NCBI GenBank assembly: GCA_002503705.1
Contig: DASH01000042.1
Span: 25,950-89,949 of the forward strand
Direction: 5' to 3'
DNA: 64,000 nucleotides
From: Candidatus Woesearchaeota archaeon UBA153
Lineage (GTDB): Archaea > Nanobdellota > Nanobdellia > Woesearchaeales > UBA525
A program made the translations under genes and the position numbers. Under the pieces are notes generated by a model. That model saw only the letters and a list, made by a program, of their open reading frames with translations, had not been told where the DNA came from and made no database searches. Numbering within the stretch: the stretch's first letter is position 1; each line of letters opens with the position of its first letter. Positions 1 through 45,899 of this stretch are shown in pieces.

Positions 1-471
1 ATCAAGGCGGGCGAGCCAGTGCTGTTCGACTTCTTCGCGAAGAGCATGACGAGCGGGTACTGGTTCGACATGAGCCGCACGGTCGTCGTCGGCAAGCCGT
101 CGAATGAATACCGGCGGCTGTGGCGTGCGGTGAAAGAGGCGCAGGACGCCGCGTTGAGGAAAATTCGACCCGGCACGCGATGCGGCGCGCTCAACCAGGC
201 GATTGACGACGTCTTCAAGAAGCGCCGCTACGCGACGACGGACGAAGAAGGGTTTTTGCACAGCGCCGGCCACGGCCTCGGCCTGGAGATTCACGAAGCG
301 CCCACCGTCGGGAACGGGAGCAAGGACGTCCTGAAGGCGGGCATGGTCATCACGATCGAACCCGGCTTGTATTACAAAAAAATCGGAGGTGCACGGCTCG
401 AGAACACACTCTTCGTGACGAAGAACGGCTATAGGGACTTGACGCGATACCCGCGGAGGATGACGCCATGA
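1..471 (+). CDS. M24-family metallopeptidase (Xaa-Pro/methionine aminopeptidase-like), C-terminal part; 5' end lies outside window
   Basis: Frame open from nt 1; HSAGHGLGLEIHEAP M24 metal-binding signature; G.MVITIEPG motif. Confidence 0.6.
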   Translation: MKAGEPVLFDFFAKSMTSGYWFDMSRTVVVGKPSNEYRRLWRAVKEAQDAALRKIRPGTRCGALNQAIDDVFKKRRYATTDEEGFLHSAGHGLGLEIHEAPTVGNGSKDVLKAGMVITIEPGLYYKKIGGARLENTLFVTKNGYRDLTRYPRRMTP

Positions 472-827
472 ACCCGGAGACCATCGAGCTTCTTTGGGAG
501 ACGATCGAGCAGGAACAGGACCTCTTGACCATCGTCGAGGGGAAGAACGACAAGCGCGCGCTCGAACGCCTCGGCTTCCGCAACATCAGAACCCTCGACC
601 GTCCGCTCTACCGGATCATCGAGGAGATTGACGGCGACGAGGTCGCGATTCTCACCGACCTGGACTCGCACGGCCAAGGGCTGTACAAGTATTTCTACCA
701 TGAATGCGCGCGCCGCGGCATCAAGGTGAACAACCGCGTGCGGCAACTCCTGCACTTCACCGACCTGCGCCAGATCGAAGGGCTGGCGAACTACCTGGAA
801 CGGCTCACGCCGATACAGACGCAGTAG
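468..827 (+). CDS. small Toprim-domain protein
   Basis: EGKNDKRAL ... ILTDLDSHG acidic Toprim motifs; 4-bp overlap with upstream gene. Confidence 0.5.
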   Translation: MNPETIELLWETIEQEQDLLTIVEGKNDKRALERLGFRNIRTLDRPLYRIIEEIDGDEVAILTDLDSHGQGLYKYFYHECARRGIKVNNRVRQLLHFTDLRQIEGLANYLERLTPIQTQ

Positions 828-896: not shown

Positions 897-3116
897 TCAG
901 AACGCCTTCTTCAGCTCCTCGAGGCGGCGCAGCGCCTCGTCGGCGGCGTAGCCGCCATTGCCGTACAATCGCGTCAGCTCGAGGAGCGCCAAGAATTTCG
1001 TGTTGCGCAAGAGGATGACGCGGACGGGGAAGGGGAGGCGCGCGTGCTTGATCGCGGTGACGAGCGCGTCGAACTCGAAACTCGCGGAGAGGCCGAACAT
1101 CGCCGCGTAGAGCGAGCGCAGCTTCCCTCGGGTCGCGTCGCGCAACGCCTCTTCCGGCACGCGTCCTCGCAACGAGCCGATCTCGTACTGCGCTTGCTTG
1201 ACGAGGTCGCCGTACTCTTCGTGACGGTGGACGCGGAAGTGCTTCGCGAACGAGTTCCACCCGAGGAGGAGCGAGTACGTGAGCGAGTCCTCATAGAAGA
1301 AGTGGATGGTCTTGCCGTGCGTGACGAGGAAGACGAGCCGCGACGCGTACACGGCGCGCGCCAAGTAGCCCGCGAAGAGCAAGACGAGGAGGAGCAGCGC
1401 GATGACGACCCCTTTGATGACGCCTGGCTTGTAGTCGCTCCACGCGCACGGCCTGCACGGTCCGTCGCAATCCACGAGCCGTTCCCCCTGGTTTTTCACG
1501 TTGTCGTTGCAGGTTGGGCATGCGTCGCAGGGTCCGCCGCAGTCTGTTTTCTCTTCTCCTTGGTTCTGTTCGCCGTCGTTGCAGGTTGGGCACGCGTCGC
1601 AGGGTCCGCCGCAGTCGACGCCGGTCTCTTTTCCGTTCTTCACGCCGTCCTCGCACGTCACGCCGACGCAGATGCCGCGGAGACACACGGCGCTCTCGCA
1701 CTCGCCGTTGTTCCGGCACCGCATCCCGTCGCCGCACGCCTCGCACACGCCGCCGCAATCGAGATCGCTCTCGTCCTGGTTCTTGACGCCGTCGTTGCAG
1801 GTTGGGCATGCGTCGCAGGGTCCGCCGCAGTCTGTTTTCTCTTCTCCTTGGTTCTGTTCGCCGTCGTTGCAGGTTGGGCACGCGTCGCAGGGTCCGCCGC
1901 AGTCGACGCCGGTCTCTTTTCCGTTCTTCACGCCGTCCTCGCACGTCGCGTCCGGCTCGCACGCCTGCATCGTCGCCGGCTTCTCCGTCTCGTTCGCGCA
2001 CGGAGTCAACGGTATGCAGACGCGTTCCTGATACCCGGGGAAGATGCACTCGCCCCAATCGGTGCAATCCCAACGCGGGACGCACGCTGGTTCGTCGCAC
2101 GCGCCGCAGTCCTTCGGGCAGGAAGCGCACTCTTCCGGCGCGATGCAGATCATGTCGCCGCAATAGTTGTTGCGGACGCCGACAACCGTCTCGTTCAGGA
2201 CCGTGTACTTGACGTTCCGGCTCGTGACGGTCGCGCCGCTCGAATCGGTCGCGGTGTACGCGTGATAGACGACGCCGGGCTCGCCCGCCTTCAGCGTGAA
2301 CAACTCTCCCTCGATGCTCGGCGTGACCGTTGCCCGAGTCATCTTCGTTTCCGGCCTCGGTCCCGTCTCCTCGAGCGTGAACGTCAAGACGCCACGGTCA
2401 GGGTCGAAGAAGTACAGGCTGAGGTTGAGCGTGAACGTCCCGCCGCGCGGCAGGGTGACGTCGATGAACTCCGTCACTTGGACTGGCGCCCGGTTGACAT
2501 TCGCGACGCTCACGTTCCACACGCGCACCGTCGTCAATCCTTCCCGGCTCGTCGCTCGCAGTTCGAGCGTGTGCAGGCCCCCCGCGTTGAAATCTGGATA
2601 ATACAGGTATGACTCGTTCTCCTTGGCGACGTCAACGCCGTCGAGGCGCCACGTGATTGTCGCGTTCTCTGTTTTCGCGGTGAAGAGGAACGGCCTCCCT
2701 TCTCGCGCGGTGACGACGCCGGGCGCGGGCGTCGTCGTCACAATCGGCGGGTGGCGGATCGCGTACTCCGCGACGCTCGTCGCGACGCACCCTCGCGGGG
2801 TGACCGCGTAGAAGAGGATTCTCGCGGTCGACGTCGTCGTTCCCGTCGGGGTGAACGTGAACGCTCCCGTCGTCTCGTCGAACGCGAAGCCCGGCACGCT
2901 GTCGCCGATGAACGTGGCGCCGAGCGTCGCGTCGCTCGTCGTCGTGAACGTGCCGTTCAGCGTGTGGTCGAGCCCGATAACGCTCGTCGCGGGTTCGAGC
3001 GCGATTTTCGGCGCGTCCGCCGGGCCGCAGTACGCGGTCGTCACGGTCGCGACGAGAAGTGTGACGAGGAGACTGAGAATCAGGACGTTGACACTCTTCC
3101 GCACGCGCACGCTCAC
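897..3116 (-). CDS. large type-I membrane surface protein: signal peptide, Ig-like region, about 6 cysteine-rich 28-aa repeats (C.DG..N..E...DCGGPC.AC), TM helix, cytoplasmic tail
   Basis: 739-aa ORF; N-terminal hydrophobic signal; repeated DCGGPCDACPTCNDG units; hydrophobic segment VVIALLLLVLLFAGYLA. Confidence 0.65.
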   Translation of the reverse strand: MSVRVRKSVNVLILSLLVTLLVATVTTAYCGPADAPKIALEPATSVIGLDHTLNGTFTTTSDATLGATFIGDSVPGFAFDETTGAFTFTPTGTTTSTARILFYAVTPRGCVATSVAEYAIRHPPIVTTTPAPGVVTAREGRPFLFTAKTENATITWRLDGVDVAKENESYLYYPDFNAGGLHTLELRATSREGLTTVRVWNVSVANVNRAPVQVTEFIDVTLPRGGTFTLNLSLYFFDPDRGVLTFTLEETGPRPETKMTRATVTPSIEGELFTLKAGEPGVVYHAYTATDSSGATVTSRNVKYTVLNETVVGVRNNYCGDMICIAPEECASCPKDCGACDEPACVPRWDCTDWGECIFPGYQERVCIPLTPCANETEKPATMQACEPDATCEDGVKNGKETGVDCGGPCDACPTCNDGEQNQGEEKTDCGGPCDACPTCNDGVKNQDESDLDCGGVCEACGDGMRCRNNGECESAVCLRGICVGVTCEDGVKNGKETGVDCGGPCDACPTCNDGEQNQGEEKTDCGGPCDACPTCNDNVKNQGERLVDCDGPCRPCAWSDYKPGVIKGVVIALLLLVLLFAGYLARAVYASRLVFLVTHGKTIHFFYEDSLTYSLLLGWNSFAKHFRVHRHEEYGDLVKQAQYEIGSLRGRVPEEALRDATRGKLRSLYAAMFGLSASFEFDALVTAIKHARLPFPVRVILLRNTKFLALLELTRLYGNGGYAADEALRRLEELKKAF
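1501..2090. repeat. near-identical tandem duplication (about 288-bp unit x2, with 84-bp sub-repeats) inside the cysteine-rich repeat gene
   Basis: ORF-track frames 1514-1786 and 1802-2212 begin with the identical 50 aa; frame 1501-2031 shows SLQVGHASQGPPQS repeated four times. Confidence 0.7.
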
Positions 3117-3584: not shown

Positions 3585-3634
3585 GCCATGCTCTTCGCAA
3601 CCTATTTAAACCGTGAAGGCGGTGGGGGAGACGC

Positions 3635-5426: not shown

Positions 5427-5441
5427 AAAACCATTATAAAC
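5427..5441 (+). promoter_or_regulatory. BRE/TATA (AAAACCATTATAAAC) for hef; near-leaderless
   Basis: About 22 nt upstream of ATG at 5463. Confidence 0.45.
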
Positions 5442-5462: not shown

Positions 5463-7673
5463 ATGCTTCGTCCGTCTGTCGAGCCGCGGTTGTACCAGGA
5501 GACGATCTTCGCCACGGCCTCTTTGAAGAACACGTTGGTCGTCTTGCCGACGGGGATGGGGAAGACGTTGATTGCCGAACTGCTCACCGTCCACCGTCTC
5601 GAACACTACACGGGCAGTAAAGTCCTCATCCTCGCGCCGACACGACCATTAGTGCAGCAGCACAAGACGACGTTCAGGAAAGACCTCGCGCTCTCGGAAG
5701 AGGAGGCGGTCATGTTCACGGGGAACGTCTCGCCGGCGAAGCGCGCCGCGTTGTGGAAGAACGCGAAGATCATCTTCAGCACGCCGCAAGGCCTGGAGAA
5801 CGACCTCGTCGGCAGCAAGATCTCGCTGAAAGACGTCTCCTTGCTCGTCTTCGACGAAGCCCACCGGGCGACTGGCGATTACAGTTACGTCTTCATCGCG
5901 GACAGATACAAGAAGGAAGCGACGCACGAGCGTATCCTCGCGCTCACCGCGAGTCCGGGGAGCGACAAGGAGAGCATCGAGCAGGTCTGCAAAGTTCTCC
6001 ACATCGAGGAGATCGAGTCGCGTTCCGCGGAAAGTTCGGACGTCAAGCCGTACATCCAGGACATCGACGTCGAGTACCTCACCGTGCCGATGCCGGCTGA
6101 GTTCAAGGGGGCGCACGCCGCGTTCCAACGCTGCCTGAAGCGAAGATTGGACGATGTCGTCGAGCTCGGCGTCGTCAATCGGCAAGCGCTGCACAACAAG
6201 ACGTTGCTGCTGAAAGCGCAAGCCGGCTTGTACGCGCGCAGCGCGAAGGGCGAGAAGAGCTACGAGGCCTTGAAGACGATGTCGCTGCTCGCGGAGGCGT
6301 TGAAGCTCCAGCATGGCATCGAACTGTTGGAGACGCAAGGCGTCGCTTCGCTCGAGAAGTACTTGGGCAAGCTGCGCGCGGAGGCGACGGCGAAGCAGAG
6401 CAAGGCGGTGCAGAACCTCGTCGCTGACGTCGACTTCAAGGCGGGCGCGGCGCTCGTCGCGTCCTTGAAGGAGGCGAACGTCGAGCACCCGAAGCTGAAG
6501 GCGTTGCAGAAGGCGGTGCTCAGAACGCTGTACGCCGACAAGAATGCCAAGATCATCATCTTCAACCAGTACCGTGACCAGGCGGTGCGCATCAAGCAAG
6601 CGTTGGATGAAATTAATGTCTCTGCGAACATCTTCGTCGGCCAATTGAAGAAAGGCGAGACCGGGATGACCCAGCTGGAGCAGCACCGCATCCTCGAATC
6701 GTTCCGCGCGGGCGAGTTCAGCTGCCTCATCGCGACGAGCGTCGCGGAAGAAGGCCTGGACATCCCGAAGGTGGACGTCGTCCTCTTCTACGAGCCGGTG
6801 CCGAGCGCCATCAGGACGGTGCAGCGTCGGGGACGCACTGGCCGTTTGGAGAAAGGCAAGATCATCATGCTCATCACGGAAGGGACGCGCGACGTCGCGC
6901 ACAAGTGGGCCGCGCACCACAAGGAGAAACGCATGTACCGGGTCTTGAGCGAGGTGAAAGGCACGCTCTCCGGCGAGGGCGAGGAAGTTGAGGCGCAGAC
7001 GACGTTAAACGAAAATAACGAGGAGAACGCCGACGTCATCATCGCCGACCATCGCGAGAAGACGAGCGGCGTCCTCAAGGAGCTCATCGACATGAACGTG
7101 AAGATCGACTTGCGGCAGTTGGACGTCGGCGACTACCGGCTGAGCGACCGCGTCGTCGTCGAGTACAAACGAGTCCCGGACTTCGTCAACAGCATCGTCG
7201 ACGGCCGGTTGCTGCAGCAGTTGCGCGGCCTGCGCAGCTACCCGCGACCGTTGATCATCATCGAGGGGGACGAGGACATCTACAGCGTGCGCAACGTGCA
7301 CCAGAACGCGATCCTCGGCATGCTCGCCGCGATCACCGTCAGCTACAACATCCCGGTCTTGTTCACAAAGACGCCGAAAGAGACTGCGTCGTTGCTCGCG
7401 CTCATCGCGCGGAAGGAGCGCGAGCGCGGGAGCGCGGAGCCGAGCGCGCACACGCAGAAGCCGCTCACCGAGACGGAGCGCCAGGAGTTCATCATTTCCA
7501 GTCTGCCCGGCGTCGGCCCGAGCCTCGCGAAAGCCTTGTTGAAGGAGTTCGGCAGCGTCAAGGGGGTCGTGGACGCGAGCCCGGAGTCGTTGCAGCGCGT
7601 CGACAAGGTCGGCGAGAAGAAAGCCAAAGCGATCCACGACGCGGTGCGCAAGAAGTACGAGCCGAACGCGTAG
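5463..7673 (+). CDS. hef: Hef: SF2 helicase fused to ERCC4/XPF nuclease and HhH2
   Basis: PTGMGKT Walker A, DEAHR box, helicase C motifs QRRGRTGR; C-terminal ERCC4 (DVGDY...IIEGDE) and HhH LPGVGPSLAKALL. Confidence 0.85.
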   Translation: MLRPSVEPRLYQETIFATASLKNTLVVLPTGMGKTLIAELLTVHRLEHYTGSKVLILAPTRPLVQQHKTTFRKDLALSEEEAVMFTGNVSPAKRAALWKNAKIIFSTPQGLENDLVGSKISLKDVSLLVFDEAHRATGDYSYVFIADRYKKEATHERILALTASPGSDKESIEQVCKVLHIEEIESRSAESSDVKPYIQDIDVEYLTVPMPAEFKGAHAAFQRCLKRRLDDVVELGVVNRQALHNKTLLLKAQAGLYARSAKGEKSYEALKTMSLLAEALKLQHGIELLETQGVASLEKYLGKLRAEATAKQSKAVQNLVADVDFKAGAALVASLKEANVEHPKLKALQKAVLRTLYADKNAKIIIFNQYRDQAVRIKQALDEINVSANIFVGQLKKGETGMTQLEQHRILESFRAGEFSCLIATSVAEEGLDIPKVDVVLFYEPVPSAIRTVQRRGRTGRLEKGKIIMLITEGTRDVAHKWAAHHKEKRMYRVLSEVKGTLSGEGEEVEAQTTLNENNEENADVIIADHREKTSGVLKELIDMNVKIDLRQLDVGDYRLSDRVVVEYKRVPDFVNSIVDGRLLQQLRGLRSYPRPLIIIEGDEDIYSVRNVHQNAILGMLAAITVSYNIPVLFTKTPKETASLLALIARKERERGSAEPSAHTQKPLTETERQEFIISSLPGVGPSLAKALLKEFGSVKGVVDASPESLQRVDKVGEKKAKAIHDAVRKKYEPNA

Positions 7674-7737
7674 GGTTGCGCGTTGATGTTTGCTCGTCGT
7701 CAGACGAACGCGAGGCCGCTGCGTCAGCGGGTACGTC

Positions 7738-7822: not shown

Positions 7823-7922
7823 ACGTTCGAGCACTGCTCGACTGGGCAATTGCGGAATCGACTGGACGGCGTCCAGCAGTATCGGCACAACACATAAAAG
7901 CTCTTCGGGGGTTCCTGGGAGG

Positions 7923-9539
7923 ATGGCGAAGCTCGCGATGGATGATCCGTTCTTCTTCGCGAAAGCGCTGCAGTGGTACAAGCGGCGCGACGTCGAAGAA
8001 GCAATCCTCGTGGCGTGCGAGTCGCGTGAGGTTTCGCCGCGGTACGGGCAGGGGTTCGGCAAGCGCCCCGACGCGTTGTTCTATCCCGCGGACGTGCTGA
8101 GCTTCGCGAAGCGGAAGGCGACGAGCTTCCACTGCAGCGAGGAGCGCTGGAGCGACCCGCTCAAGTTGAAGACTGGCGGTTCGCGGAAAGAGCTCGACGA
8201 CCTCCGCGCCGGCTGGGACTTGGTCCTCGACGTGGACTGCCCGTACTGGCTGTTCGCGAAGCTCACCGCGCACTTGTTCGTGCGCGCGTTGGAAGACCAC
8301 GGCATCAAGAGCGTGAGCGTCAAGTTCAGCGGCAGCAAGGGGTTCCACGTCGGCGTGCCGTGGGAAGCGTTCCCGGAACTGCACGGTGACGTCGAGACGC
8401 GGACGTTGTTTCCGGAAGCGCCGCGCGCCATCGCGAAGTACCTCGTCGACTACATCGCCTCGAACCTGATTACGGTGACGGCGAACACGATCGTCTTCGA
8501 CAAGACGCACAAGGTGAGTTATGAGAAATTGAAGGAGGTCACCGGCAAGGACTCGACCGGCCTCTTGAGCGAGTTCTGCAAGCGGTGCAAGACGCGCCAC
8601 GAGCGAGAAGAGCGCTCGAACCTCGCGGTCTTCCTGTGTGGGAGCTGCGGCCACTCGCGCAAGGCCGAACAGGCCGACTACCTCAAGTGCGAGCGGTGCA
8701 ACGGCGTCATGGAACCGCAACCCATCGTCGAATCAGGTCGGTGCGAGCGCTGCGGGAGCACCGAGTTCGAAAGCAAGTTCAACGTGCAGGCCCTCATCGA
8801 GGTCGACACGATCCTCCTCGCCTCGCGTCACTTGTTCCGCACCCCGTATTCGTTGCACGAAAAGAGCGGCCTCGTCAGCGTCGTCATCCCGACAACGAGC
8901 GTCATGACGTTCGAGAAGGAGGACGCGAAGCCGGAAAAAATCACGAGCTTCCCGCGATTCCTGGACGGCACGAAAGCGTCGCGAGCGGAAGGCGCGAAGC
9001 TCCTCGCCGCGGCGATGAGCCAGGCGGCGCTCGCCGAGCAGAAAGCGGAAGGCAAGCGCGAGTTCGCCGTGCCGGAAGAGGCGGTGCCGGAGGATTTGTT
9101 CCCGCCGTGCATGCAGGAGATGCTCACCGGGCTCACCGATGGGAAGAAGCGCGCGTTGTTCGCGCTCACCAACTTCTTCCGCACGTGCGGCTGGGGTCAT
9201 GAGCAGATGTCCGCGCGCCTCGAAGAGTGGAACAAGAAGAATCCGGAGCCGTTGCGCGAAGTCATCCTGAAAGGCCACCTGCGCTACCAGAAGACGCGCA
9301 AAGAGATCGTCCCGCCGCCGAACTGCAAGCGGTTCTACCAAGACTTCGGCGTCTGCCACCCCGACCAGTTCTGCGGCCGCATCAAGAACCCGGCGCAGTA
9401 CGCCAAGTTCAAGGCGGAACTCTTGAGCGCGGAGAAACCCATCGACAAACCGCGCGTGACGCTCACCGACGAGCAGAAAGCGATGCGGAAGGCGTACCGG
9501 GAGAAGAAGAAGCAGGAGAAAGAACCGTCGAATCCTTAA
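7923..9539 (+). CDS. priSL: compact DNA primase fusing PriS catalytic (AEP) domain and PriL Fe-S C-terminal domain
   Basis: GGAGG then ATG at 7923; LVLDVDC and FSGSKGFHV AEP motifs; Cys-rich zinc region; C-terminal FPPCMQ and additional Cys (PriL-CTD Fe-S hallmark). Confidence 0.7.
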   Translation: MAKLAMDDPFFFAKALQWYKRRDVEEAILVACESREVSPRYGQGFGKRPDALFYPADVLSFAKRKATSFHCSEERWSDPLKLKTGGSRKELDDLRAGWDLVLDVDCPYWLFAKLTAHLFVRALEDHGIKSVSVKFSGSKGFHVGVPWEAFPELHGDVETRTLFPEAPRAIAKYLVDYIASNLITVTANTIVFDKTHKVSYEKLKEVTGKDSTGLLSEFCKRCKTRHEREERSNLAVFLCGSCGHSRKAEQADYLKCERCNGVMEPQPIVESGRCERCGSTEFESKFNVQALIEVDTILLASRHLFRTPYSLHEKSGLVSVVIPTTSVMTFEKEDAKPEKITSFPRFLDGTKASRAEGAKLLAAAMSQAALAEQKAEGKREFAVPEEAVPEDLFPPCMQEMLTGLTDGKKRALFALTNFFRTCGWGHEQMSARLEEWNKKNPEPLREVILKGHLRYQKTRKEIVPPPNCKRFYQDFGVCHPDQFCGRIKNPAQYAKFKAELLSAEKPIDKPRVTLTDEQKAMRKAYREKKKQEKEPSNP

Positions 9540-9597
9540 TTTTCTCGTCGAGGAATGCAAAATTTATATAGTGGTGGTCGACGCTCGTTCTCGTTGA

Positions 9598-10155
9598 AGA
9601 CTCGCTCCGGTGTGCCGCGAGCTGCAGCACCAGAAGCAAGTCATCTTGGAGACTTCGGCTGCGGTGTTGAAAGAAAAGAAAGCCTCGGTCGCGTTCACCG
9701 TCGGCACGATGATCGAAGTGCCCCGCGCGGCGCTCACCGCCGACGAGATCGCCGCGGAGGCGGCGTTTTTCAGCTTCGGGACAAATGATTTGACGCAGAT
9801 GACGATGGGATTGTCGCGCGACGACGCCGGCAAGTTCATCCCGAGCTACCTGAAAGAAGGCCTGTTCGAGTACGACCCGTTCCAGCACCTCGACGCGACT
9901 GGCGTCGGCCAGCTCGTCACGATGGCCGTGCAGAAAGGTCGCAGCGTCAAGAAAGACCTGAAAGTCGGCATCTGCGGCGACCCGGCAAGCATCACGTTCT
10001 GCCACGCCGCCGGCCTGGACTACGTCTCGTGCAGCCCGTACCGCGTGCCGATCGCGCGCTTGGCGGCTGCGCACGCGGCAATCAACGCGAGAGTGAAGAA
10101 GTCACATTTTTTATCGTTTTTTCCGGAATCATTTTCCGATATGTCGGATGATTAA
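9598..10155 (+). pseudogene. C-terminal 185-aa remnant of pyruvate phosphate dikinase / PEP-utilising enzyme
   Basis: [10 protein letters not shown] and ICGDPAS motifs of PPDK C-terminal TIM barrel; frame opens immediately after a stop at 9595; missing the about 700-aa N-terminus; overlaps next gene by 74 bp. Confidence 0.5.
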
Positions 10156-10897
10156 GAATGAGGGCCCAACCAATCTTTCTGATTTCTTTTTCTGTTGGAA
10201 AATTCTTGTGGAATGTGAGATCTCTATTGAGTGTGCGGCCCGCGTTGTTTATGAGGTACTCTGCATAAGGTGTTTCTTGCATATACTGGAGGATATTATC
10301 CAGGAATGAGTAGTTGGGGTTGTTACTGTAGATGAGCTCTGTCGCCCTGACGAAATATTCTTCCTCCATATCGCTTTTGGCGATGACACCGAGTGCCGCC
10401 TCTTTCTTTCGAAAGAATAAGTGCCCGTATTCGTGGATGAGCCGGTCTGTCACGATGCTGTCGATGGATGTCGGAACTATCGGGCTTGAAGCGTATCGAG
10501 CGAACTCGGCTTCGTTCGTTCCCGGTGTTTGCACAGCTCTTCGAATGAGCGCGCGCATACGTTCGACTTCAGGTTGATAGACGACAATGATGTCGTGTTC
10601 TGCATAGGCGATGCCGTCGGCCTGTATGTGCCGAAACATCAATTCTAGTCTTTTGTCAGATTTTTTGATGACATATGCCGTTCCCACCACGCGCTCTCCG
10701 AAAAGCTCACACTCTTTACTCATTGGCGCATAATTTTTCGTCGTGATATCGAAGATTTGCTGAAAAGAATCGATTCTCCCATCTTGGTTCGCGGTCACAA
10801 CGACCGCTCCCCGAGGAGAACTTGTTTGCTGGGCGAAGCTCTCTCCAGTTGTTGTCAGTAAGCTTGTGATTGCGATGATGGTACAGAGGCGGTTCAT
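10082..10897 (-). CDS. secreted zinc metallopeptidase-like protein (HExxH...E), low GC
   Basis: N-terminal signal peptide [22 protein letters not shown]; HEYGH with downstream Glu; GC clearly below flanks. Confidence 0.55.
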
Positions 10898-11301
10898 CTC
10901 AACAACCTTGAAAACTTTTCAAAAAATCCGTATTCTTTCCGGTTTTTTTCGGGGAAGCTTCTTTAACACGAACGTCTCTACCCATCCTATGGCTCTTGAG
11001 CGTTCGCTTCGGACTCTCGCACTCACGGTTGCGCTCCTCACTCCGTCCGGCCCGGTTCAGGAATCAGTTCCAAGTAATAACCTTGTCGTTTATTCTTCGC
11101 GTTCGAACTACTGCGTTAGTTATGTCGTCGATGAACGTCTTATCGGGCGTCCAGTCGCGCCACTCCACCCTCTCCAACACACTTCATGGACCGATCCTTT
11201 CGAAGCCTCCACGTCCGCTTTTAGAGAGGAAATCGACACGTACCGCCTCCAGTAGCATTTCTTTTCCCTATTGTCGTCGGAGACTGGCTGTTGCCGGACG
11301 C

Positions 11302-11316
11302 AAAGCTTTATAAAAG
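11302..11316 (+). promoter_or_regulatory. BRE/TATA (AAAGCTTTATAAAAG) about 230 nt upstream of rpl3
   Basis: Canonical archaeal promoter-like box; implies long leader or separate transcript. Confidence 0.5.
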
Positions 11317-11544
11317 ACCTCTTATTCTCGCGAGTTCCCGAACTGCAGGGAAGCACTGCTGGTTGGCTCCACCGGGGCGGCCAGCGCGAAGGCCTGGAAA
11401 GGAATGACGCTTTTCAGTACCGACTCAGACACGGTATTCTGCAAGCGCCACTCCCTCCTGAAAACGGCTTTCCTCATACATTCCTGAGAGCAAGGGAGAC
11501 CAAGCGAGTACGGAAGAAGAGCACGAAACCACGAGTAACGAACG

Positions 11545-23257: not shown

Positions 23258-24124
23258 ATGGCACGCAGAGAAGCACGGAAGGAGAGCGTCGTGAGCGCGA
23301 ACCTCGACAACTGGCACCCGAAGACCGAGCTTGGGCGCCAAGTCAAGGCGAAGGAGATCCTCGACATCGACGAAATCCTTGATAGTGGTCGCACCATCCT
23401 CGAGCCGGAAATCATCGACATACTCCTCCCGAACTTGGAAGCCGACCTCTTGTTGATCGGCCAAGCGAAGGGCAAGTTCGGCGGCGGCCAGCGTCGCACG
23501 TTCCGCCAGACGCAGAAGAAGACGATGGAGGGGAACAAACCGAAGTTCTCCTGTCTCGTCGTCATCGGCGACAAGAACGGCCACGTCGGTTTCGGCCTCG
23601 GTAAGGCGAAAGAGACGATGCCGGCGCGCGAGAAAGCCGTCCGGAAAGCCAAGCTCAACCTGTTCAAGATCCGTCGCGGCACGGGCTCGTGGGAAGACGC
23701 GAGCAGCGAACCGCACTCCATCCCGTTCAGCGTGACCGGCAAGACGGGCAGCGTCCTCATCAAGCTCATCCCCGCGCCGAAAGGCAAGGGGCTCGTCGTC
23801 GAGAAAGAGGCGGCGAAAGCCTTAGTCTTGGCCGGCATCAAGAACGTCTGGAGCAAGACGTACGGCCAGACGAAGAACAAAGTCAATTTCATCCGAGCGC
23901 TCGAGCTCGCGTTGCGCAACTTGAGCACGACGAAAGTGCCGGACAAAATGGTGGAGAAGCTCGCCATCGCGGACGGCAGCGTCAAGAAGAGCGAGGACGC
24001 GAGCGTTGACTCGTCCGAAGAGGCCGCGGCCGCCTCCTCCGCGAGCGAACCGAAGCGCGCTGAACGCCGCCCTGTCCGCCGCGTTCGCGGTCCGAAGAAG
24101 GAGACGAAAGAGAAGAAAGAGTGA
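23258..24124 (+). CDS. rps5: ribosomal protein uS5 with about 60-aa acidic/basic C-terminal extension
   Basis: S5 dsRBD and C-terminal domain; tail. Confidence 0.85.
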   Translation: MARREARKESVVSANLDNWHPKTELGRQVKAKEILDIDEILDSGRTILEPEIIDILLPNLEADLLLIGQAKGKFGGGQRRTFRQTQKKTMEGNKPKFSCLVVIGDKNGHVGFGLGKAKETMPAREKAVRKAKLNLFKIRRGTGSWEDASSEPHSIPFSVTGKTGSVLIKLIPAPKGKGLVVEKEAAKALVLAGIKNVWSKTYGQTKNKVNFIRALELALRNLSTTKVPDKMVEKLAIADGSVKKSEDASVDSSEEAAAASSASEPKRAERRPVRRVRGPKKETKEKKE

Positions 24125-35064: not shown

Positions 35065-36108
35065 CTACCATCGTTTCACGGCGACGACGCCGCCGAAGTG
35101 CTCAATCTTGGACGCCGCTTCGCTCGCGGAGAGCACGTGGACTTCGCCACGGACGCTCTCGCACTGGCGCAGCAGCGCTTCGAGCTTCGCGGACGCTTCC
35201 GGACTCTCGGTTCGCGACCGGCCGATGGCCGCCTCCGTGACGAGCAGGAACGCCACGTTCGCGCTCGCGATGGCTTCGCTGATGTCGAGCGGCCCGTACG
35301 CGAGCAACCCTTTTGACAACGCCGCCACCGCTTGTTCGACGAGGCTCATCTCGCGCAGCGTGGAGTTCTCCTTGATGACGCGCTCGACCTCCGGACGGTT
35401 CAACAGTTCGCGGATCGCGGTCTTCTCGACCGCGCTGATCGACGTCAGGATGGTCTTCTTCTTCAACGCGGGCGGCAACTCCTTGTCCACGTACTCTTTC
35501 CAGAACGCGGGCGCGCCCGCGATGATGCTCGTGAACTTGATGCGCTCGTCCCGCGCGGAGATCTCGGTGACGATCTCCTTGAAGAACGCGGCGCTCTTCT
35601 TCTCATCCACTGCCTTCTTCGGCACGTCGCCTTTCAAGCGGGCGACCTCTTCGATGCCGCGTTTCGTGACCGTGTAGAGTTTCGCCTCCTCGCGGTCGAA
35701 CAACACGACGAGGATGGCTGGCTCGTTCTTCGTGGACTCTTCAAGCTTCGCGATGAGATACGACGGCCACGACGCCTTCCGCAACGTCACTTCCTCGCCA
35801 GGCTCGAGACCGAACGAGTGGTGCTCGCCGCGCGGGATGTCTTCAGGACCGTCGATGATAGTGCCGAGGACTCGTAACGACGAGCCGTCCGGCGCGTACT
35901 CAGTCTTCTCCACCTTGATGGCGAGCCGGATTCTGCGTTTCGAAACTGATCCTTTCTCATCTGTCTTGCCGACCTTCACCTTCCGCTCGGTGCTCCCTTC
36001 CAGCTCGTCGCCCGGCGCGATGATGGAGCGCAAGGTCCAGACGTCGTCCGCAGTCTCCACTCTCAGACGCACTTCGCCGTCCCGCCAATCCTTCTTGAAT
36101 AAACGCAT
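35065..36108 (-). CDS. pelA: Pelota/Dom34 (mRNA surveillance)
   Basis: MRLFKKDWRDGEVRLRVETADDVW start typical of aPelota; eRF1-like domains. Confidence 0.85.
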   Translation of the reverse strand: MRLFKKDWRDGEVRLRVETADDVWTLRSIIAPGDELEGSTERKVKVGKTDEKGSVSKRRIRLAIKVEKTEYAPDGSSLRVLGTIIDGPEDIPRGEHHSFGLEPGEEVTLRKASWPSYLIAKLEESTKNEPAILVVLFDREEAKLYTVTKRGIEEVARLKGDVPKKAVDEKKSAAFFKEIVTEISARDERIKFTSIIAGAPAFWKEYVDKELPPALKKKTILTSISAVEKTAIRELLNRPEVERVIKENSTLREMSLVEQAVAALSKGLLAYGPLDISEAIASANVAFLLVTEAAIGRSRTESPEASAKLEALLRQCESVRGEVHVLSASEAASKIEHFGGVVAVKRW

Positions 36109-36390
36109 GATATTTTCCTCGTCAACCTATTTCTCGTTCTGCGCCGGTACCGGCTTCGCGCCCGCACCGTCCTGCTCGCTCTCCGTTGAGAACGTGGTGT
36201 GCGGTTCCCCCCGGACGGGGCGTGGTCGGGCACACCCCTCCCAGGTCGCTCCGAGGCGTCGCGACCGTCCCCCACCGCAACCGCTTCTTGTACCGCTTCC
36301 GTCGCTCGCCCTTAAGGACGGTGCCGGCGCTCAAGCAGTTGTTTTCAGGTTCTCTACCGTCGAAGACTCTCTCGAGGGAAAAGAGAAACC

Positions 36391-36402
36391 TTTATATATA
36401 AA
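36391..36402 (+). promoter_or_regulatory. TATA box (TTTATATATAAA) for surface-protein gene cluster
   Basis: About 20 nt upstream of ATG 36422. Confidence 0.5.
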
Positions 36403-36421
36403 TCTTTGTGGGGTGAGAGGT

Positions 36422-37621
36422 ATGCGGCGTCGTGGTCAAGAGTTCCGGATGAGTTCTCCGCTCGTCGTCCTCCTCATCGCCGTCGTCATCATCCTCTACA
36501 TCCTCTTCCTCCCTCCCGCGGAGCGGGAAGCGCTCCTGACCGGCACGACCACGCCTGGCGGCGGTTCTTCAGGGGGCGGCGTTCTGACTCCTGGCGGCGC
36601 CGGCGTCGTCGTCATGGATAAGTACCTCGGCACGCTCTTGCCGCAGTCGAGCGGCAGCGTCGAGCACGCCATCCCGACGACCACAGTCTTCACGAGCACG
36701 AACACGGAAGAGGTCAAGTTCGTCGACAGCATGGGCGTCTCGCGCAGCGCGTTCTCGCGCCAAGACGCCACGCTCACGTTCAACGTCGAACTCGGCGTGG
36801 CGAAGAACCACTTGTTGACGTTCAACGTGGACGAGTACGGCGGCCCCCTCACCATCTCGCTGAACGACCAACCAATCTTCAGCAGGGAGATCACGACGCG
36901 TTCGCCCGCGCCAATCACGCTCCCGCAAGAACTCCTCAAACCGCAGAACACGCTCACGTTCACCGCCGGCACGCCCGGCTGGGCGTTCTGGAAGTCGAAC
37001 ACGTACTCGTTGCGCAACGTCCTCGTCAGCGCAGACGTGACGCGGTACGACAACGCCGCGGCGGAACAACACTTCACGATCACGCCCGCCGAGCACGAGA
37101 AGCTCGAGACCGCGAAGCTCGAGTTCGTCCCCGAGTGCGACGCGAAGAAGACGGGACGGCTCAGCATCACGCTGAACGGCAACCTCCTCTACGCGGGCTA
37201 TATGGACTGCGGCATCCTCACCCGGCAAGAGGTCGCGAAAGAGTCCCTCGTCATCGGCGACAACCGCATCGGGTTCACGAGTGGCTCGGGCGGCTACACC
37301 ATCGACCGGATCAAGCTCGTCTCGACGCTCAAAGAGCAAGACTACCCCGTCTTGTACTTCAACCTGCCGCCCGACCTGTTCCAGCAGGCGAACGTCTTCG
37401 CCGGCCGCGTCGTCCTCACGCTCCGCTTCAGCGAAGGAAACACGCTCAAGACGGGCAGCATCGTCGTGAACGGCTTCCAAGACAGCTTCCAGACGGACAG
37501 CTACTACTACCAAGCGACCCTCGACCCGAACATCCTCGTCCCGAACGCGAACTCGATCCAAGTCATCCCGGTCGGCGGCGCGCTGCACATCCCCGAAGTC
37601 CGCATCGAGATGCTCGGGTGA
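36422..37621 (+). CDS. membrane-anchored secreted protein (N-terminal TM/signal, Gly/Thr linker, about 330-aa ectodomain)
   Basis: In-frame ATG after TATA; hydrophobic LVVLLIAVVIILYILFL; the 36406-36621 track ORF is out of frame. Confidence 0.6.
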   Translation: MRRRGQEFRMSSPLVVLLIAVVIILYILFLPPAEREALLTGTTTPGGGSSGGGVLTPGGAGVVVMDKYLGTLLPQSSGSVEHAIPTTTVFTSTNTEEVKFVDSMGVSRSAFSRQDATLTFNVELGVAKNHLLTFNVDEYGGPLTISLNDQPIFSREITTRSPAPITLPQELLKPQNTLTFTAGTPGWAFWKSNTYSLRNVLVSADVTRYDNAAAEQHFTITPAEHEKLETAKLEFVPECDAKKTGRLSITLNGNLLYAGYMDCGILTRQEVAKESLVIGDNRIGFTSGSGGYTIDRIKLVSTLKEQDYPVLYFNLPPDLFQQANVFAGRVVLTLRFSEGNTLKTGSIVVNGFQDSFQTDSYYYQATLDPNILVPNANSIQVIPVGGALHIPEVRIEMLG

Positions 37622-37687
37622 GACGAGTGGGCGGCAGCGAAGAGTCGCACCGCCGTCCACGGAGCGAGAAGAGAGTGAGAGTTCTCC

Positions 37688-39619
37688 ATGGCTGACGACT
37701 TCAAAGACAAACTCCGCGGTCTGCACGAAGAGTTGCGTGTCATCGAGCTCGAGATTGAATCCCGCAAGGTCGCGGGCGAACCGTTCGACGACCTCTCCCG
37801 TCTTGAAGCCGAGAAACGGAAAGAGATTGCGGCCCATGTGAAGAGCGGCCGGAGCAGCAAGAAGTACAAAGACGGTTTCAAAGACTATTCAAAACTGAAA
37901 GAAGAAGTCCTCGCCGCCGTCGTCCCGGAAGCGGCGGTCGCCTTGGCGGCGAAAGAACGCCTCGGCCTCGGCGGTGGCGATGACGGCAGGGACGCGGGCG
38001 ATGGCGATGGTGGTGAAGAGTCCGGTCCGGGCGCCTTGCAGAAGTTCAAGGATGGCTACCGGAGAGCCGACCAGGGCTTCCGTCAAGCGCAGCGGAACGT
38101 CGCAATCGGCGTGAAGAAAAGCGTCGACTTCATGGACCATCACGCGCACGCGTGGATCTTCGCGCTCGTCTGCCTCCTCGTTCACGCGTACGACGCGAGC
38201 ACCGGGTTCAATCGAGGCGGCAGCAACCTGCTCCTCATGATCACCGCGTACACGTTCATCGCCCTGTACGCGGCCTTGTTCTATTACAACACCGGCTTCA
38301 CGACGGCGAGCGGACGGTTCTTCGTTCTGAGTCTCATCGCCGTCTGCCTGCCGCTCCTCAGGCTCCTCCCGTACTTCAACAAGCTCGATTTCCTCATCTT
38401 TATCCTTACCTTCCTTCCTGTCTGGTTCCTCTACGTCAGCTTCCACGCAGAGAAGAACAAATGGCTCCAATGGACTGGCAAGATCATCGTCTTCGTGCTC
38501 ATCATCATCGCGTTCATCCTCCTCCTCGGTTCGATGAGCATGCCGGACATCTTCACGAGCGGCGACACGGGCGCGATGATGGGCGTCTCGCTCCGCCACT
38601 CGTTCGAGGATATCGGCGCAGCGTGGAGCCGTATCAAGGAGCGTTTCGTCGAAGGCGGCGTCTTCTGCTGGAGCTGCTGGCGTCAGCGTCTCAACTCGAC
38701 GTTCAACCCGTACGCGCAGTTCTACACTGGCGAGGTTGAGCAGAATAAGGAGGCGCCGCTCGGCGTTTACATCACCAAGCTCGAACCGCTCTACCCGACC
38801 GTGTACCTCAGCACTGGCGTCAATCCTGTCACGATGGGTCGCATCGAGGCGAAGACGTTCGTGCCGGGCGGCGTGATCGTCAACCCGAGTTGTCGTCTCG
38901 AGAAGCCGGGCAAGCCCGCCATCCTGGGCAGGGCGGACCCGGAAGGTCCGATGCAGGTCAACTACAATCTCGTCAGCGATGTCATCTGCACGTACGACCT
39001 CCCTGACGACGCGTTGACCGGCCAGTATGACGCGACGCTCGGCCTCTCGTTCGACTTCCAAACGTGGGCGTACATCACGAACACGTTCGTCGCGCAAAGC
39101 CTCATCCAGAACTATCTCATCCAAGACCGGGACGTGAACCGTGAGCTCGCGATTGACAAGACGACGAGCGCGGTCTACACGAGCGGTCCGGTCGCGTTGG
39201 GCATCAGCGCGGACTCACAGCCGATCGCGATTAACCCCGACGCGAAAGACGAGAACTACATCCAGCAACGCTTCGGGTTCACGCTCACGAACCGTTGGAG
39301 CCAAGGGGAGATCCAGGAGGTACGGGAGGCGAAAGTCATCGTGCCAGCGCCGTTCTTGCTGAAGGACTGCCTGCCGACCAAACCCGCCGTGAAGCAGATT
39401 CCTGAGAACAAGACGACGATCTACACGTTCTCTCGCGACGGGCTGCAGTTCGACAGCCAGTACGATTACCGCACCGTGACGTGCAAGCTCGCCCTCGACA
39501 GCAAAGAGGCGGCCGAAGAAGTCCTCGCGTTCGGCGAGAAGACGCCCGTCACGTTCGTCGTCCTCACGACGTACACCTACCAGTTGGAGAAGAAGACGCG
39601 GTTCCGCGTCGAGAAGTGA
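37688..39619 (+). CDS. polytopic membrane protein: cytoplasmic coiled-coil N-terminus, about 5 TM, about 340-aa extracellular beta-rich domain
   Basis: 643 aa; 66-bp gap from upstream gene; C-terminal segment resembles C-termini of the next three genes. Confidence 0.6.
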   Translation: MADDFKDKLRGLHEELRVIELEIESRKVAGEPFDDLSRLEAEKRKEIAAHVKSGRSSKKYKDGFKDYSKLKEEVLAAVVPEAAVALAAKERLGLGGGDDGRDAGDGDGGEESGPGALQKFKDGYRRADQGFRQAQRNVAIGVKKSVDFMDHHAHAWIFALVCLLVHAYDASTGFNRGGSNLLLMITAYTFIALYAALFYYNTGFTTASGRFFVLSLIAVCLPLLRLLPYFNKLDFLIFILTFLPVWFLYVSFHAEKNKWLQWTGKIIVFVLIIIAFILLLGSMSMPDIFTSGDTGAMMGVSLRHSFEDIGAAWSRIKERFVEGGVFCWSCWRQRLNSTFNPYAQFYTGEVEQNKEAPLGVYITKLEPLYPTVYLSTGVNPVTMGRIEAKTFVPGGVIVNPSCRLEKPGKPAILGRADPEGPMQVNYNLVSDVICTYDLPDDALTGQYDATLGLSFDFQTWAYITNTFVAQSLIQNYLIQDRDVNRELAIDKTTSAVYTSGPVALGISADSQPIAINPDAKDENYIQQRFGFTLTNRWSQGEIQEVREAKVIVPAPFLLKDCLPTKPAVKQIPENKTTIYTFSRDGLQFDSQYDYRTVTCKLALDSKEAAEEVLAFGEKTPVTFVVLTTYTYQLEKKTRFRVEK

Positions 39620-39625
39620 CTACTC

Positions 39626-40900: not shown

Positions 40901-41017
40901 GTTGGTTGCGCTCGCAGCGTTCGCATTCCCGCTCATTCCCTGAGAACTCCAGAGGGGTTTCTCAGAGGAGTTCACCGTCAAAAAGTTTAAAAACCACGAG
41001 GTTGGAGGAGACCATAT

Positions 41018-42286: not shown

Positions 42287-42297
42287 GCCGCGAAACG

Positions 42298-42313
42298 CCC
42301 GCTCGCGAGCGGG
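42298..42313 (+). terminator. perfect GC hairpin CCCGCTCGCGAGCGGG followed by A-rich tract
   Basis: 11 nt after stop of 41018-42286 gene. Confidence 0.4.
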
Positions 42314-42393
42314 AAAAACGAAACGCTTGAAACTTGAAAAACACTTGAAAACTTGAACGTCCGTCACAGGACGATCCCGGAGGTCGACAAACC

Positions 42394-45786: not shown

Positions 45787-45899
45787 AACGCCCTGAGAAC
45801 TGCACCACGGGTTAATAAACGTTTTTCTTCACACGAGTCGGGCAGTCTGAAGCGAGCGTCGTCGCAACCATTAAAAATAGCCTTCTCTCAACGAGTCGT

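Follow-up and report, generated by a model that had tools for sequence, protein, structure and literature searches.

The open reading frame (ORF) at positions 7923..9539 on the forward strand of the window (the whole 64-kb stretch of DNA that we analysed) encodes, with a probability of about 0.9, the sole cellular replicative primase of a Woesearchaeota-type (DPANN cluster 2) archaeon. The enzyme would be a monomer in which a PriS domain is tethered by a short helical linker to the C-terminal Fe-S domain of PriL (PriL-CTD). This interpretation draws on the domain content of the protein, the conservation of its residues, its family membership and its chromosomal context, from which we infer its enzymatic activity, its metal content and the role of an insert between motifs II and III.

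The gene is a single uninterrupted frame that begins with an ATG at position 7923, ends with a stop codon at 9537-9539 and encodes 538 amino acids (aa); an identical protein (P0001) is present in NCBI, ENA and Logan. A longer frame starting at the TTG codon at position 7683 was considered and rejected. The N-terminal extension that it would add is rich in Arg and is not seen in homologues, and this start is unlikely because the closest homologues also begin with MAKLAMDD and are 530-546 aa long, and because a TATA-like octamer (ACATAAAA, 7892..7899, forward strand), read from the sequence, is located 31 nt 5' of the ATG at 7923. The same distance between octamer and start is found at many other genes of the window, and AT-rich octamers are present at -30 to -36 in about 12 of 23 sampled genes, in DNA that is 62% GC. 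The ACATAAAA box, a putative promoter, probably drives a leaderless or near-leaderless primase transcript. Scans of the 64-kb window for tRNAs and Rfam families returned no matches.

The original prediction held that this ORF contains AEP catalytic motifs followed by a PriL-CTD-like segment with FPPCM and three further Cys residues, and both parts of this claim were borne out by Pfam models matching over their curated cut-offs. PF01896 (DNA_primase_S) matches aa 109-224 with 34.5 bits (cut-off 26.8), and PF04104 (DNA_primase_lrg) matches aa 377-471 with 25.3 bits, only 3 bits over its cut-off of 22.4 and covering only profile positions 89-191 of 266. The N-terminal part of the AEP (PriS) catalytic domain (aa 1-185, 7923..8477, forward strand), recognised by PF01896, the AlphaFold2 (AF2) model and Foldseek, holds an invariant SFH70xSEE block, motif I (DLVLDVD, aa 99-105, 8217..8237) and motif II (SGSKGFH, aa 136-142, 8328..8348), both on the same strand. 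D103 and D105, the predicted metal-binding aspartates of motif I, are invariant in 78 of 78 sequences, as are S136, K139 and H142 of motif II. The C-terminal part of the domain (aa 286-350, 8778..8972, forward strand) was recognised by its invariant residues and by phmmer, which aligns this block to PriS of human and S. solfataricus; it contains motif III (EVD295, RH303 and R306-TPYSLH), in which D295, H303 and R306 are invariant. The 78 aligned members thus show no variation at any of the eight catalytic residues checked and, given this family conservation, the matches to catalytic and PriL-type motifs are not due to chance. The AF2 model of the primase has a pLDDT of 88, and a Foldseek search with it recovered PriS and Prim-Pol structures with E values from 4e-7 to 1e-4, including Prim-PolC (6sa1, 3.7e-7), human Pri1 (6r4s, 2e-6) and the P. 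furiosus primase (1g71, 2e-5).

Motifs II and III are separated by a lineage-specific insert of ~100 aa (aa 186-285, 8478..8777, forward strand), which was defined from the alignment and the AF2 model as containing beta-strands, a helix and two zinc ribbons, and which is missing in the short family members of 394-425 aa, as seen both in the alignment and in their two-stretch matches. The insert carries four CxxC pairs (C219/222, C239/242, C256/259 and C274/277; nt 8577-8753) that would form two zinc-binding ribbons. The number of Cys residues in this region is eight or nine in 62 of the 78 sequences, seven in 8, four or five in 6 and none in 2. AF2 predicts beta-hairpins here with pLDDT 77-92, and a profile comparison gives weak similarity (E 0.04-0.4) to the zinc ribbons of eL43, eS27 and COG2888. 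In the 1g71 and 4rr2 structures, the zinc knuckle of canonical PriS follows motif I. This knuckle, or stem, is positioned by the active site, right after the motif (PMC4434180), but the corresponding segment of the present protein (aa 106-135), with one helix and one strand, lacks this feature: the gap between D105 and S136 is only 30 residues long and contains a single Cys (C106). The Zn region that had been proposed for this ORF exists as four CxxC pairs, but from its sequence it is an insert with a double zinc ribbon, located after motif II and before motif III, and is distinct from the classical PriS zinc knuckle. A limited literature search found no published description of this insert.

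Downstream of the PriS fold, an interdomain linker (aa 351-385, 8973..9077, forward strand) is poorly conserved in alignments and contains a helix in the AF2 model at aa 358-378. This helix of 21 residues and a loop are all that part the PriS fold from FPPC, leaving no room for a PriL N-terminal domain; the layout is the same in all aligned members. The loss of that domain, which had been deduced from the 538-aa length, is thereby upheld. The PriL-CTD (4Fe-4S) domain (aa 386-495, 9078..9407, forward strand) comprises FPPC396M (aa 393-397), K408-K-R410..F413, PPNC468, C478, C484 and a terminal IKNPxQY block. Its assignment is based on PF04104, on joint conservation of the Cys residues, and on a match between the family profile and P. 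abyssi PriL (9f26_B, E = 2.3e-7) that extends over the FPPC and PPNC..C..C..NP..Y blocks. C396, C468, C478 and C484 are all present in 74 of the 78 sequences, and the exceptions lose them as a set. The existence of some natural relatives that lack all four bears on the long-running question of what purpose the primase [4Fe-4S] cluster serves. NCBIfam PriL models match with E 1e-7, yet the scores are far under the equivalog cut-offs, and those of the PriS models are also missed widely, as expected for a divergent fused form. The model of this domain has a pLDDT of 92, and a Foldseek search of the PDB placed yeast p58C and S. solfataricus PriX on top with non-significant scores (E 0.6-2.5, TM about 0.4). 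The protein ends in a basic tail (aa 496-538, 9408..9536, forward strand) with a helix in the AF2 model at aa 516-533 and the conserved motif (R/K)xxLT(D/E)EQKxMR+x(Y/F)RE+KK. Long Woesearchaeota-type forms have this tail (17 of 77 loci), as do many of the homologues that we fetched; short forms lack it.

More than 3,872 homologues share this length and architecture. They fall into 655 clusters at 50% identity, 302 of which score E < 1e-30, and are encoded in at least 587 GTDB species genomes. Proteins of Woesearchaeota and Nanoarchaeota metagenome-assembled genomes (MAGs) are the closest, with 43-69% identity across 90-100% of the length. Most of the top 80 genomes are labelled as MAGs of Woesearchaeota, Nanoarchaeota or Nanobdellota, and the others have different or generic labels. 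By sequence, the gene is a member of the known monomeric PriS-PriL (NEQ395) family of DPANN cluster 2 and Undinarchaeota. The fusion is a shared derived character of Nanoarchaeota, Woesearchaeota, other DPANN cluster 2 archaea and Undinarchaeota (PMC3914693, PMC7414124, bioRxiv 10.64898/2026.06.17.729505), in agreement with the suggestion that it is known from Nanoarchaeum-like and DPANN lineages and can serve as a lineage marker, and its members take the place of PriS/PriL throughout cluster 2 DPANN (PMC7414124). The present gene is useful mainly in that capacity: its presence assigns the contig to Undinarchaeota or DPANN cluster 2, a choice that sequence similarity narrows to Woesearchaeota. 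It adds nothing new on primase biology, because earlier work has already described the family, shown where it occurs and characterised one member biochemically; its modest added value is to document that the common Woesearchaeota form has a double zinc-ribbon insert and a basic tail that the minimal NEQ395 lacks, and that some natural relatives are devoid of all four Fe-S cysteines.

That one member, NEQ395 of Nanoarchaeum equitans, is a biochemically characterised monomeric primase and the only one in the family for which PriL-CTD-dependent RNA primase activity is known (PMC10250227). A double mutant of its D87 and D89 is dead, and D194, H202 and R205 are all essential (PMC10250227). D103/D105 of the present protein correspond in spacing to D87/D89, S136/K139/H142 to S119/K122/H125 and D295/H303/R306 to D194/H202/R205, with identical intervals (D-x-D; S-x2-K-x2-H; D-x7-H-x2-R). 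The PriL-type residues likewise match the spacing of C289/C364/C376/C384 and R301/R303/F306 of NEQ395, with R/K at +12, R at +14 and F at +17 from the first Cys in both proteins. This mapping relies on published spacing and family conservation and not on direct alignment; none of eight short family representatives compared with the published residue numbering of NEQ395 matched it. Judged in this way, all residues that are catalytically essential in NEQ395 appear to be kept here at matching spacing.

By homology with NEQ395 and the heterodimeric primases, we propose a mechanism in which D103, D105 and D295 would hold two catalytic metals and S136, K139, H142, H303 and R306 would bind the elongating rNTP. 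The PriL-CTD module, through K408, R410 and F413, would bind the template as well as the initiating nucleotide and the primer's 5'-triphosphate end, which would make de novo dinucleotide synthesis possible. The CTD would then remain at the primer 5' end during extension by the PriS domain and, with one module held in place while the other extends, the linker would cap primers at roughly 9 nt. The [4Fe-4S] cluster, putatively ligated by C396, C468, C478 and C484, may have a structural or regulatory role, and the double zinc-ribbon insert may stand in for the absent canonical zinc knuckle and probably aids binding of the ssDNA template.

The chromosomal surroundings bear on whether the gene instead belongs to an integrated plasmid or virus and encodes a primase-polymerase like PolpTN2 of pTN2 or ORF904 of pRN1. 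Fusion of PriS to a PriL-like domain is described from archaeal plasmids (PMC3973330), the whole family has been proposed to stem originally from a mobile element (bioRxiv 10.64898/2026.06.17.729505), and directly downstream of the primase, at 9540-11544, there is an insertion-like 2-kb patch with a PPDK fragment and a lower-GC ORF. However, the gene is located between Hef upstream and an rpl3-rpl4-rpl2...SecY operon downstream; genes for FEN1 and the RFC small subunit are close by, and the Hef-primase-rpl3 arrangement is kept in dozens of species (Hef is present at 23 and L3 at 33 of 80 related loci). The GC content of the primase gene (0.62) equals that of its flanks, no integrase, helicase or Rep genes adjoin it, tblastn found no match to it in 50,697 phage or 72,556 plasmid records, and Raymann et al. 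noted that the pTN2 fusion and the nanoarchaeal primases have no sequence similarity (PMC3914693). Conserved synteny and the lack of phage and plasmid matches identify a vertically inherited chromosomal gene and not mobile-element cargo; a mobile origin for the present-day gene is largely refuted, and we regard it as highly improbable. We regard it as extremely unlikely that the fusion is an artefact, produced when an assembly or frameshift error joined neighbouring priS and priL genes or when the ORF was mis-called. Split versions do exist, as one nanohaloarchaeon has a short primase encoded by two adjacent genes (PMC3914693), but uninterrupted frames of this architecture and length recur across thousands of independent assemblies, the linker keeps the frame and is predicted to be helical, GC3 is maintained at 0.84 through the whole frame, and no sequence is available to encode a PriL N-terminal domain.

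A chromosomal AEP could also function mainly in repair, translesion synthesis or repriming, as PrimPol-like enzymes do, with replication primed otherwise, for example by DnaG/Toprim. Consistent with such a function, the repair enzymes Prim-PolC and LigD-Pol are among the top Foldseek matches, the protein has a weak match to PF21686 (LigD_Prim-Pol), the neighbouring gene encodes the repair helicase-nuclease Hef, and a small ORF at 435-827 has a Toprim domain with a Pfam match below cut-off. That ORF, however, encodes only 130 aa, and there is strong evidence that archaeal DnaG has a role in RNA metabolism and not in replication (PMC3914693). The PriL-CTD module is the hallmark of de novo priming, NEQ395 acts as an efficient RNA primase with a strong preference for rNTPs and is the only AEP of its genome (PMC10250227), and a family that replaces PriS/PriL in all cluster 2 DPANN is hard to reconcile with a mainly repair-related function, which we consider very unlikely. 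In the 64-kb window, no second PriS or PriL was found by Pfam searches of 40 ORFs or by domain HMMs run against the six-frame translation; the C-terminal region, for its part, resembles PriL-CTD, and the original prediction was not refuted. These results favour the replicative primase reading of the gene.

For the Woesearchaeota-type long form of this primase, the insert and tail can be considered jointly. It is possible, though we advance it only tentatively, that in this form a double zinc-ribbon module placed between motifs II and III took over from the canonical AEP zinc knuckle, that a conserved basic helix was added at the C-terminus, and that the module could set the template-sequence specificity of initiation, like the zinc-binding domain of bacterial DnaG or T7 gp4. 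If so, the natural occurrence of 0, 1 or 2 ribbons in one family would offer a ready series for testing how zinc modules tune AEP priming.

Among known systems, the primase most closely resembles the NEQ395 family ('Nanostetteria' fused PriS-PriL), with which it shares the single-chain order of PriS domain, helical linker and PriL-CTD, the absence of the PriL N-terminal domain and the four Fe-S cysteines. Both genes are chromosomal and encode what is apparently the only AEP present (in our case, within the 64-kb window). The present protein is longer than NEQ395 (538 versus 393 aa), it has the zinc-ribbon insert of ~100 aa between motifs II and III, which are 153 rather than 69 residues apart, and its basic tail of ~43 aa past the last conserved block has no counterpart in NEQ395. 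The predicted linker helix is 21 residues long, versus 30 in NEQ395 (251-280), in which its length tunes primer length (PMC10250227). The present gene, known here from sequence alone, comes from a high-GC (62%) Woesearchaeota-type genome.

Canonical heterodimeric PriS and PriL (P. abyssi 9f26/9f28, S. solfataricus 1zt2, human 4rr2) share with this protein the AEP fold and motifs I-III, the PriL-CTD with its FPPC...C...C...C Fe-S signature and NP..Y block, and, presumably, a mechanism of initiation in which the initiating NTP is held by the CTD. They are encoded by two genes instead of one ORF, and in place of the PriL N-terminal domain that docks onto PriS the present protein has a covalent linker. 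It also lacks the canonical zinc knuckle after motif I, and between motifs II and III, where a helical subdomain interrupts the prim fold of canonical enzymes (PMC4434180), it has the zinc-ribbon module instead. Plasmid and viral fusions of PriS to a helix bundle (PolpTN2 of pTN2, ORF904 of pRN1 and RepB' of RSF1010) are also monomeric AEPs with a covalently linked helical initiation domain, and RepB' has a long linker helix too. These proteins have no detectable sequence similarity to the NEQ395-type family (PMC3914693), in general do not have the four-Cys Fe-S signature of PriL and are frequently joined to helicase or polymerase modules, and they reside on mobile elements, whereas the gene described here has core chromosomal synteny.

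The primase is encoded by a single open reading frame on the forward strand, beginning with an ATG at 7923 and ending with a stop codon at 9537-9539, and is 538 aa long. An upstream TTG at 7683, which would add 80 Arg-rich residues, was rejected as an alternative start because the closest homologues, 530-546 aa in length, share the N-terminus MAKLAMDD. A TATA-like octamer (ACATAAAA, 7892-7899, forward strand) lies 31 nt ahead of the ATG, and on the strength of the homologues and of this spacing, which recurs at other genes, we accepted 7923 as the start. The most AT-rich upstream octamer lies 30-36 nt before the start codon in approximately 12 of 23 genes sampled, and AT-rich, TATA-like octamers occur at this distance from many start codons (e.g., 3603-3610, 5433-5440, 7892-7899, 40986-40993 and 45870-45877). 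In a window with 62% GC, this spacing suggests that transcripts are mostly leaderless.

The original prediction placed the catalytic motifs of an archaeo-eukaryotic primase (AEP) and a PriL-CTD-like segment in the same reading frame, and all of the motifs it described are present: motif I (DLVLD103VD105), motif II (S136GSK139GFH142), motif III (EVD295...RH303LFR306TPYSLH) and a PriL-type segment containing FPPC396M followed by C468, C478 and C484. Pfam analysis likewise bore out both domains in one chain, with DNA_primase_S (PF01896) at aa 109-224 (34.5 bits, cut-off 26.8) and DNA_primase_lrg (PF04104) at aa 377-471 (25.3 bits, cut-off 22.4). NCBIfam PriS and PriL models match the corresponding halves with E values down to 1e-7, yet far under their equivalog cut-offs. 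Only ~35 residues, including a predicted helix (aa 358-378), separate the PriS fold from FPPC, so that the protein has no PriL N-terminal domain at all, as had been proposed from its length.

An AlphaFold2 model built from a 37-sequence alignment (mean pLDDT 88.3) matched M. smegmatis Prim-PolC (6sa1, 3.7e-7), human Pri1 (6r4s, 2e-6), P. furiosus primase (1g71, 2e-5) and P. abyssi PriS (9f28_A, 2.5e-5) in a Foldseek search of the PDB, all of them AEP catalytic subunits. Modelled on its own, the segment aa 375-538 is all-helical (pLDDT 92.3); its best PDB matches, the yeast p58C Fe-S domain and S. solfataricus PriX, are non-significant (E 0.6-2.5, TM ~0.4), and its best viral matches, to baculovirus LEF-2, PriCT-1 and Prim_Pol proteins, are also weak. 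Because these matches are weak, our assignment of the C-terminal module as a PriL-CTD relies mainly on sequence: the Pfam match, a match of the family profile to P. abyssi PriL (9f26_B, E = 2.3e-7) in which the FPPC and PPNC..C..C..NP..Y blocks align, and the joint conservation of the four Cys residues.

A Cys-rich zinc region is also present, as predicted, but it is distinct from the zinc knuckle of canonical PriS. In the P. furiosus and human structures, the knuckle lies just past motif I. The canonical PriS knuckle adjoins the active site, directly after motif I (PMC4434180), whereas the window primase has just 30 residues between D105 and S136, one of them Cys, and eight Cys instead lie between motifs II and III in an insert of ~100 residues (aa 186-285), arranged as four CxxC pairs from C219 to C277. 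The AlphaFold2 model folds the insert into beta-hairpins typical of two zinc ribbons, and the family profile is weakly similar to the eL43, eS27 and COG2888 zinc ribbons (E 0.04-0.4). Short family members (394-425 aa) are entirely without the insert, and many matches of ~400-480 aa in the representative search align in two stretches that skip query residues ~183-283. Among 78 closer sequences, the spacer contains eight or nine Cys in 62, seven in 8, four or five in 6 and none in 2. By this comparison, the insert is lineage-specific. The short forms also lack a basic, predicted helical C-terminal tail (9408-9536, forward strand, aa 496-538), which has no Pfam match; its motif, (R/K)xxLT(D/E)EQKxMR+x(Y/F)RE+KK, is shared by 17 of 77 related loci and by many fetched homologues.

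The fusion was said to be known from Nanoarchaeum-like and DPANN lineages, and exactly such a family has been described (PMC3914693, PMC10250227, bioRxiv 10.64898/2026.06.17.729505). PriS-PriL fusions were reported in Nanoarchaeota, Parvarchaeota and Nanohaloarchaea (Iyer 2005; Raymann 2014, PMC3914693), and the 2026 preprint treats the fused primase as a synapomorphy of a clade it calls "Nanostetteria" (bioRxiv 10.64898/2026.06.17.729505). More than 3,872 significant homologues were recovered from a collection of 5.8 billion proteins. The 120 best are 43-69% identical to the query over 79-100% of its length (nearly all at least 89%) and nearly all 490-590 aa long, and those with a name belong to MAGs of Woesearchaeota or Nanoarchaeota. 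When 1.84 billion representatives were scanned exhaustively with HMMER, 655 clusters at 50% identity emerged (302 with E < 1e-30), and at least 587 GTDB species genomes encode a relative. Public databases already contain the identical protein, without a name. Most of the top 80 GTDB loci are labelled Woesearchaeota, Nanoarchaeota or Nanobdellota; the rest, labelled uncultured Methanosarcinales, generic "archaeon" or, once, Alphaproteobacteria, are evidently mislabelled bins. Mislabelling or contamination probably accounts for the MAGs in which loci L059 (Alphaproteobacteria, DASPMU010000108), L003, L009-L011 and others ("uncultured Methanosarcinales", many of them TPA bins) carry a DPANN-type primase, a point that the 2026 preprint makes about such bins as well (bioRxiv 10.64898/2026.06.17.729505). 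The window primase is an ordinary orthologue of the published family, useful in practice chiefly for placing the contig taxonomically. The only mildly novel angle is that the Woesearchaeota-type long form has a double zinc-ribbon insert and a C-terminal tail that are undescribed in the papers searched.

Some homologues have unusual features. In one protein (P0027) and three related loci (L052, L061 and L078), all four Fe-S Cys are replaced together (e.g., FPPS...PPNY...V/E...T/E), while every catalytic residue and K409/R410 are kept. Judged by sequence, these appear to be natural cluster-free primases within a family reported as the sole primase of its lineages, and they bear on the debate over the role of the primase [4Fe-4S] cluster. 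Two longer homologues look like intein-containing versions: P0171 (883 aa), in which motif II is interrupted by ~470 aa with HN at the end (KFS|...HN|SGNKGFH), and P0209 (1019 aa), which has a similar insert after motif III (RTPYS|...HN|SLHEKTG).

Immediately upstream of the primase is a 736-aa Hef helicase-nuclease (5463-7673) with DEAD, Helicase_C, ERCC4 and HhH domains, and downstream is an rpl3-rpl4-rpl2-rpl22-rps3...rps5-SecY cluster. Among 80 related loci with 3-kb flanks, Hef is directly upstream in 23 and rpl3 is downstream in 33. The window also encodes both PheRS subunits, an eRF1/Pelota-family protein, FEN1, an RFC small subunit and a tRNA-splicing endonuclease, among others. The primase had no tblastn match in 50,697 phage and 72,556 plasmid records. 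A separate priL gene elsewhere, together with a C-terminal region unlike PriL-CTD, would have spoken against the fusion, and none of 40 other ORFs in the 64-kb window has a PriS or PriL Pfam match; family-built domain HMMs, run on all six reading frames of the window, likewise picked out the primase and nothing else. Because of this synteny, the lack of phage and plasmid matches and the absence of any other PriS or PriL, we conclude that the primase is a vertically inherited chromosomal gene and the only AEP within the 64-kb window.

These data also weigh against other explanations, which even taken together we consider improbable. The synteny, the composition and the lack of plasmid or phage relatives in the records searched contradict a mobile-element primase. 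A fusion generated during assembly is contradicted by the same architecture in thousands of independent cases, and the PriL-CTD module, together with published evidence that these lineages have no other primase, makes a PrimPol restricted to repair unlikely.

Other features of the window deserve mention. The primase-rpl3 gap (9540-11544) is 2 kb, compared with ~0.4-1.8 kb in the relatives checked. It contains a 181-aa C-terminal fragment of a PEP-utilising enzyme or PPDK (9610-10155, forward strand; PF02896 positions 147-291 of 293), overlapped by a 271-aa ORF in a lower-GC (0.53) patch (10082-10897, reverse strand) with no Pfam match and no counterpart in the 80 related loci, and its content looks like a gene remnant or insertion. 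Five successive large ORFs (635, 643, 424, 422 and 327 aa; 35714-43377, forward strand) have coding-like GC3, and neither they nor a 739-aa ORF (897-3116, reverse strand) match Pfam at E <= 0.001. In the 288-aa ribosomal protein uS5 (23258-24124, forward strand), the Pfam N-terminal domain begins as late as residue 83; large uS5 insertions are reported to be a marker of the monomeric-primase clade (bioRxiv 10.64898/2026.06.17.729505). A 360-aa protein with a RelA/SpoT nucleotidyltransferase domain (PF04607, 68.8 bits; 55689-56771, reverse strand) adjoins the RFC small subunit in this archaeal genome. An ORF at 435-827 (forward strand) has sub-threshold Toprim matches (PF01751, 21.3 bits; PF13662, 20.3 bits) and, at 130 aa, is too small for a DnaG-type primase.

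The characterised reference for the family is NEQ395 of N. equitans, a monomeric enzyme that starts primers of ~9 nt at triplets whose middle base is thymidine (ATA preferred), depends on its PriL domain to initiate but not to extend, and in vitro can do without its Fe-S cluster (PMC10250227). Mapped by spacing and conservation, with the published numbering in place of a direct sequence alignment, NEQ395 D87 and D89 correspond to D103 and D105 (offset +16), S119, K122 and H125 to S136, K139 and H142 (+17), D194, H202 and R205 to D295, H303 and R306 (+101), C289, R301, R303 and F306 to C396, K408, R410 and F413 (+107), and C364, C376 and C384 to C468, C478 and C484 (+104, +102 and +100). An alignment of 78 family members shows no variation at R410 or at any of the eight catalytic residues, only K or R at position 408, and F413 in 75 of the sequences. 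The PriS module would catalyze two-metal phosphoryl transfer via D103, D105 and D295, and the tethered PriL-CTD would serve as the initiation site via K408, R410 and F413 and stay on the primer 5' end, with the [4Fe-4S] cluster having a putative structural or regulatory role. The insert, which occupies the position of an unrelated helical subdomain in canonical PriS, most plausibly contacts the single-stranded DNA template. By analogy with NEQ395, in which linker deletions show that linker length limits primer length (PMC10250227), the length of the linker may likewise bound that of the primer in the window enzyme.
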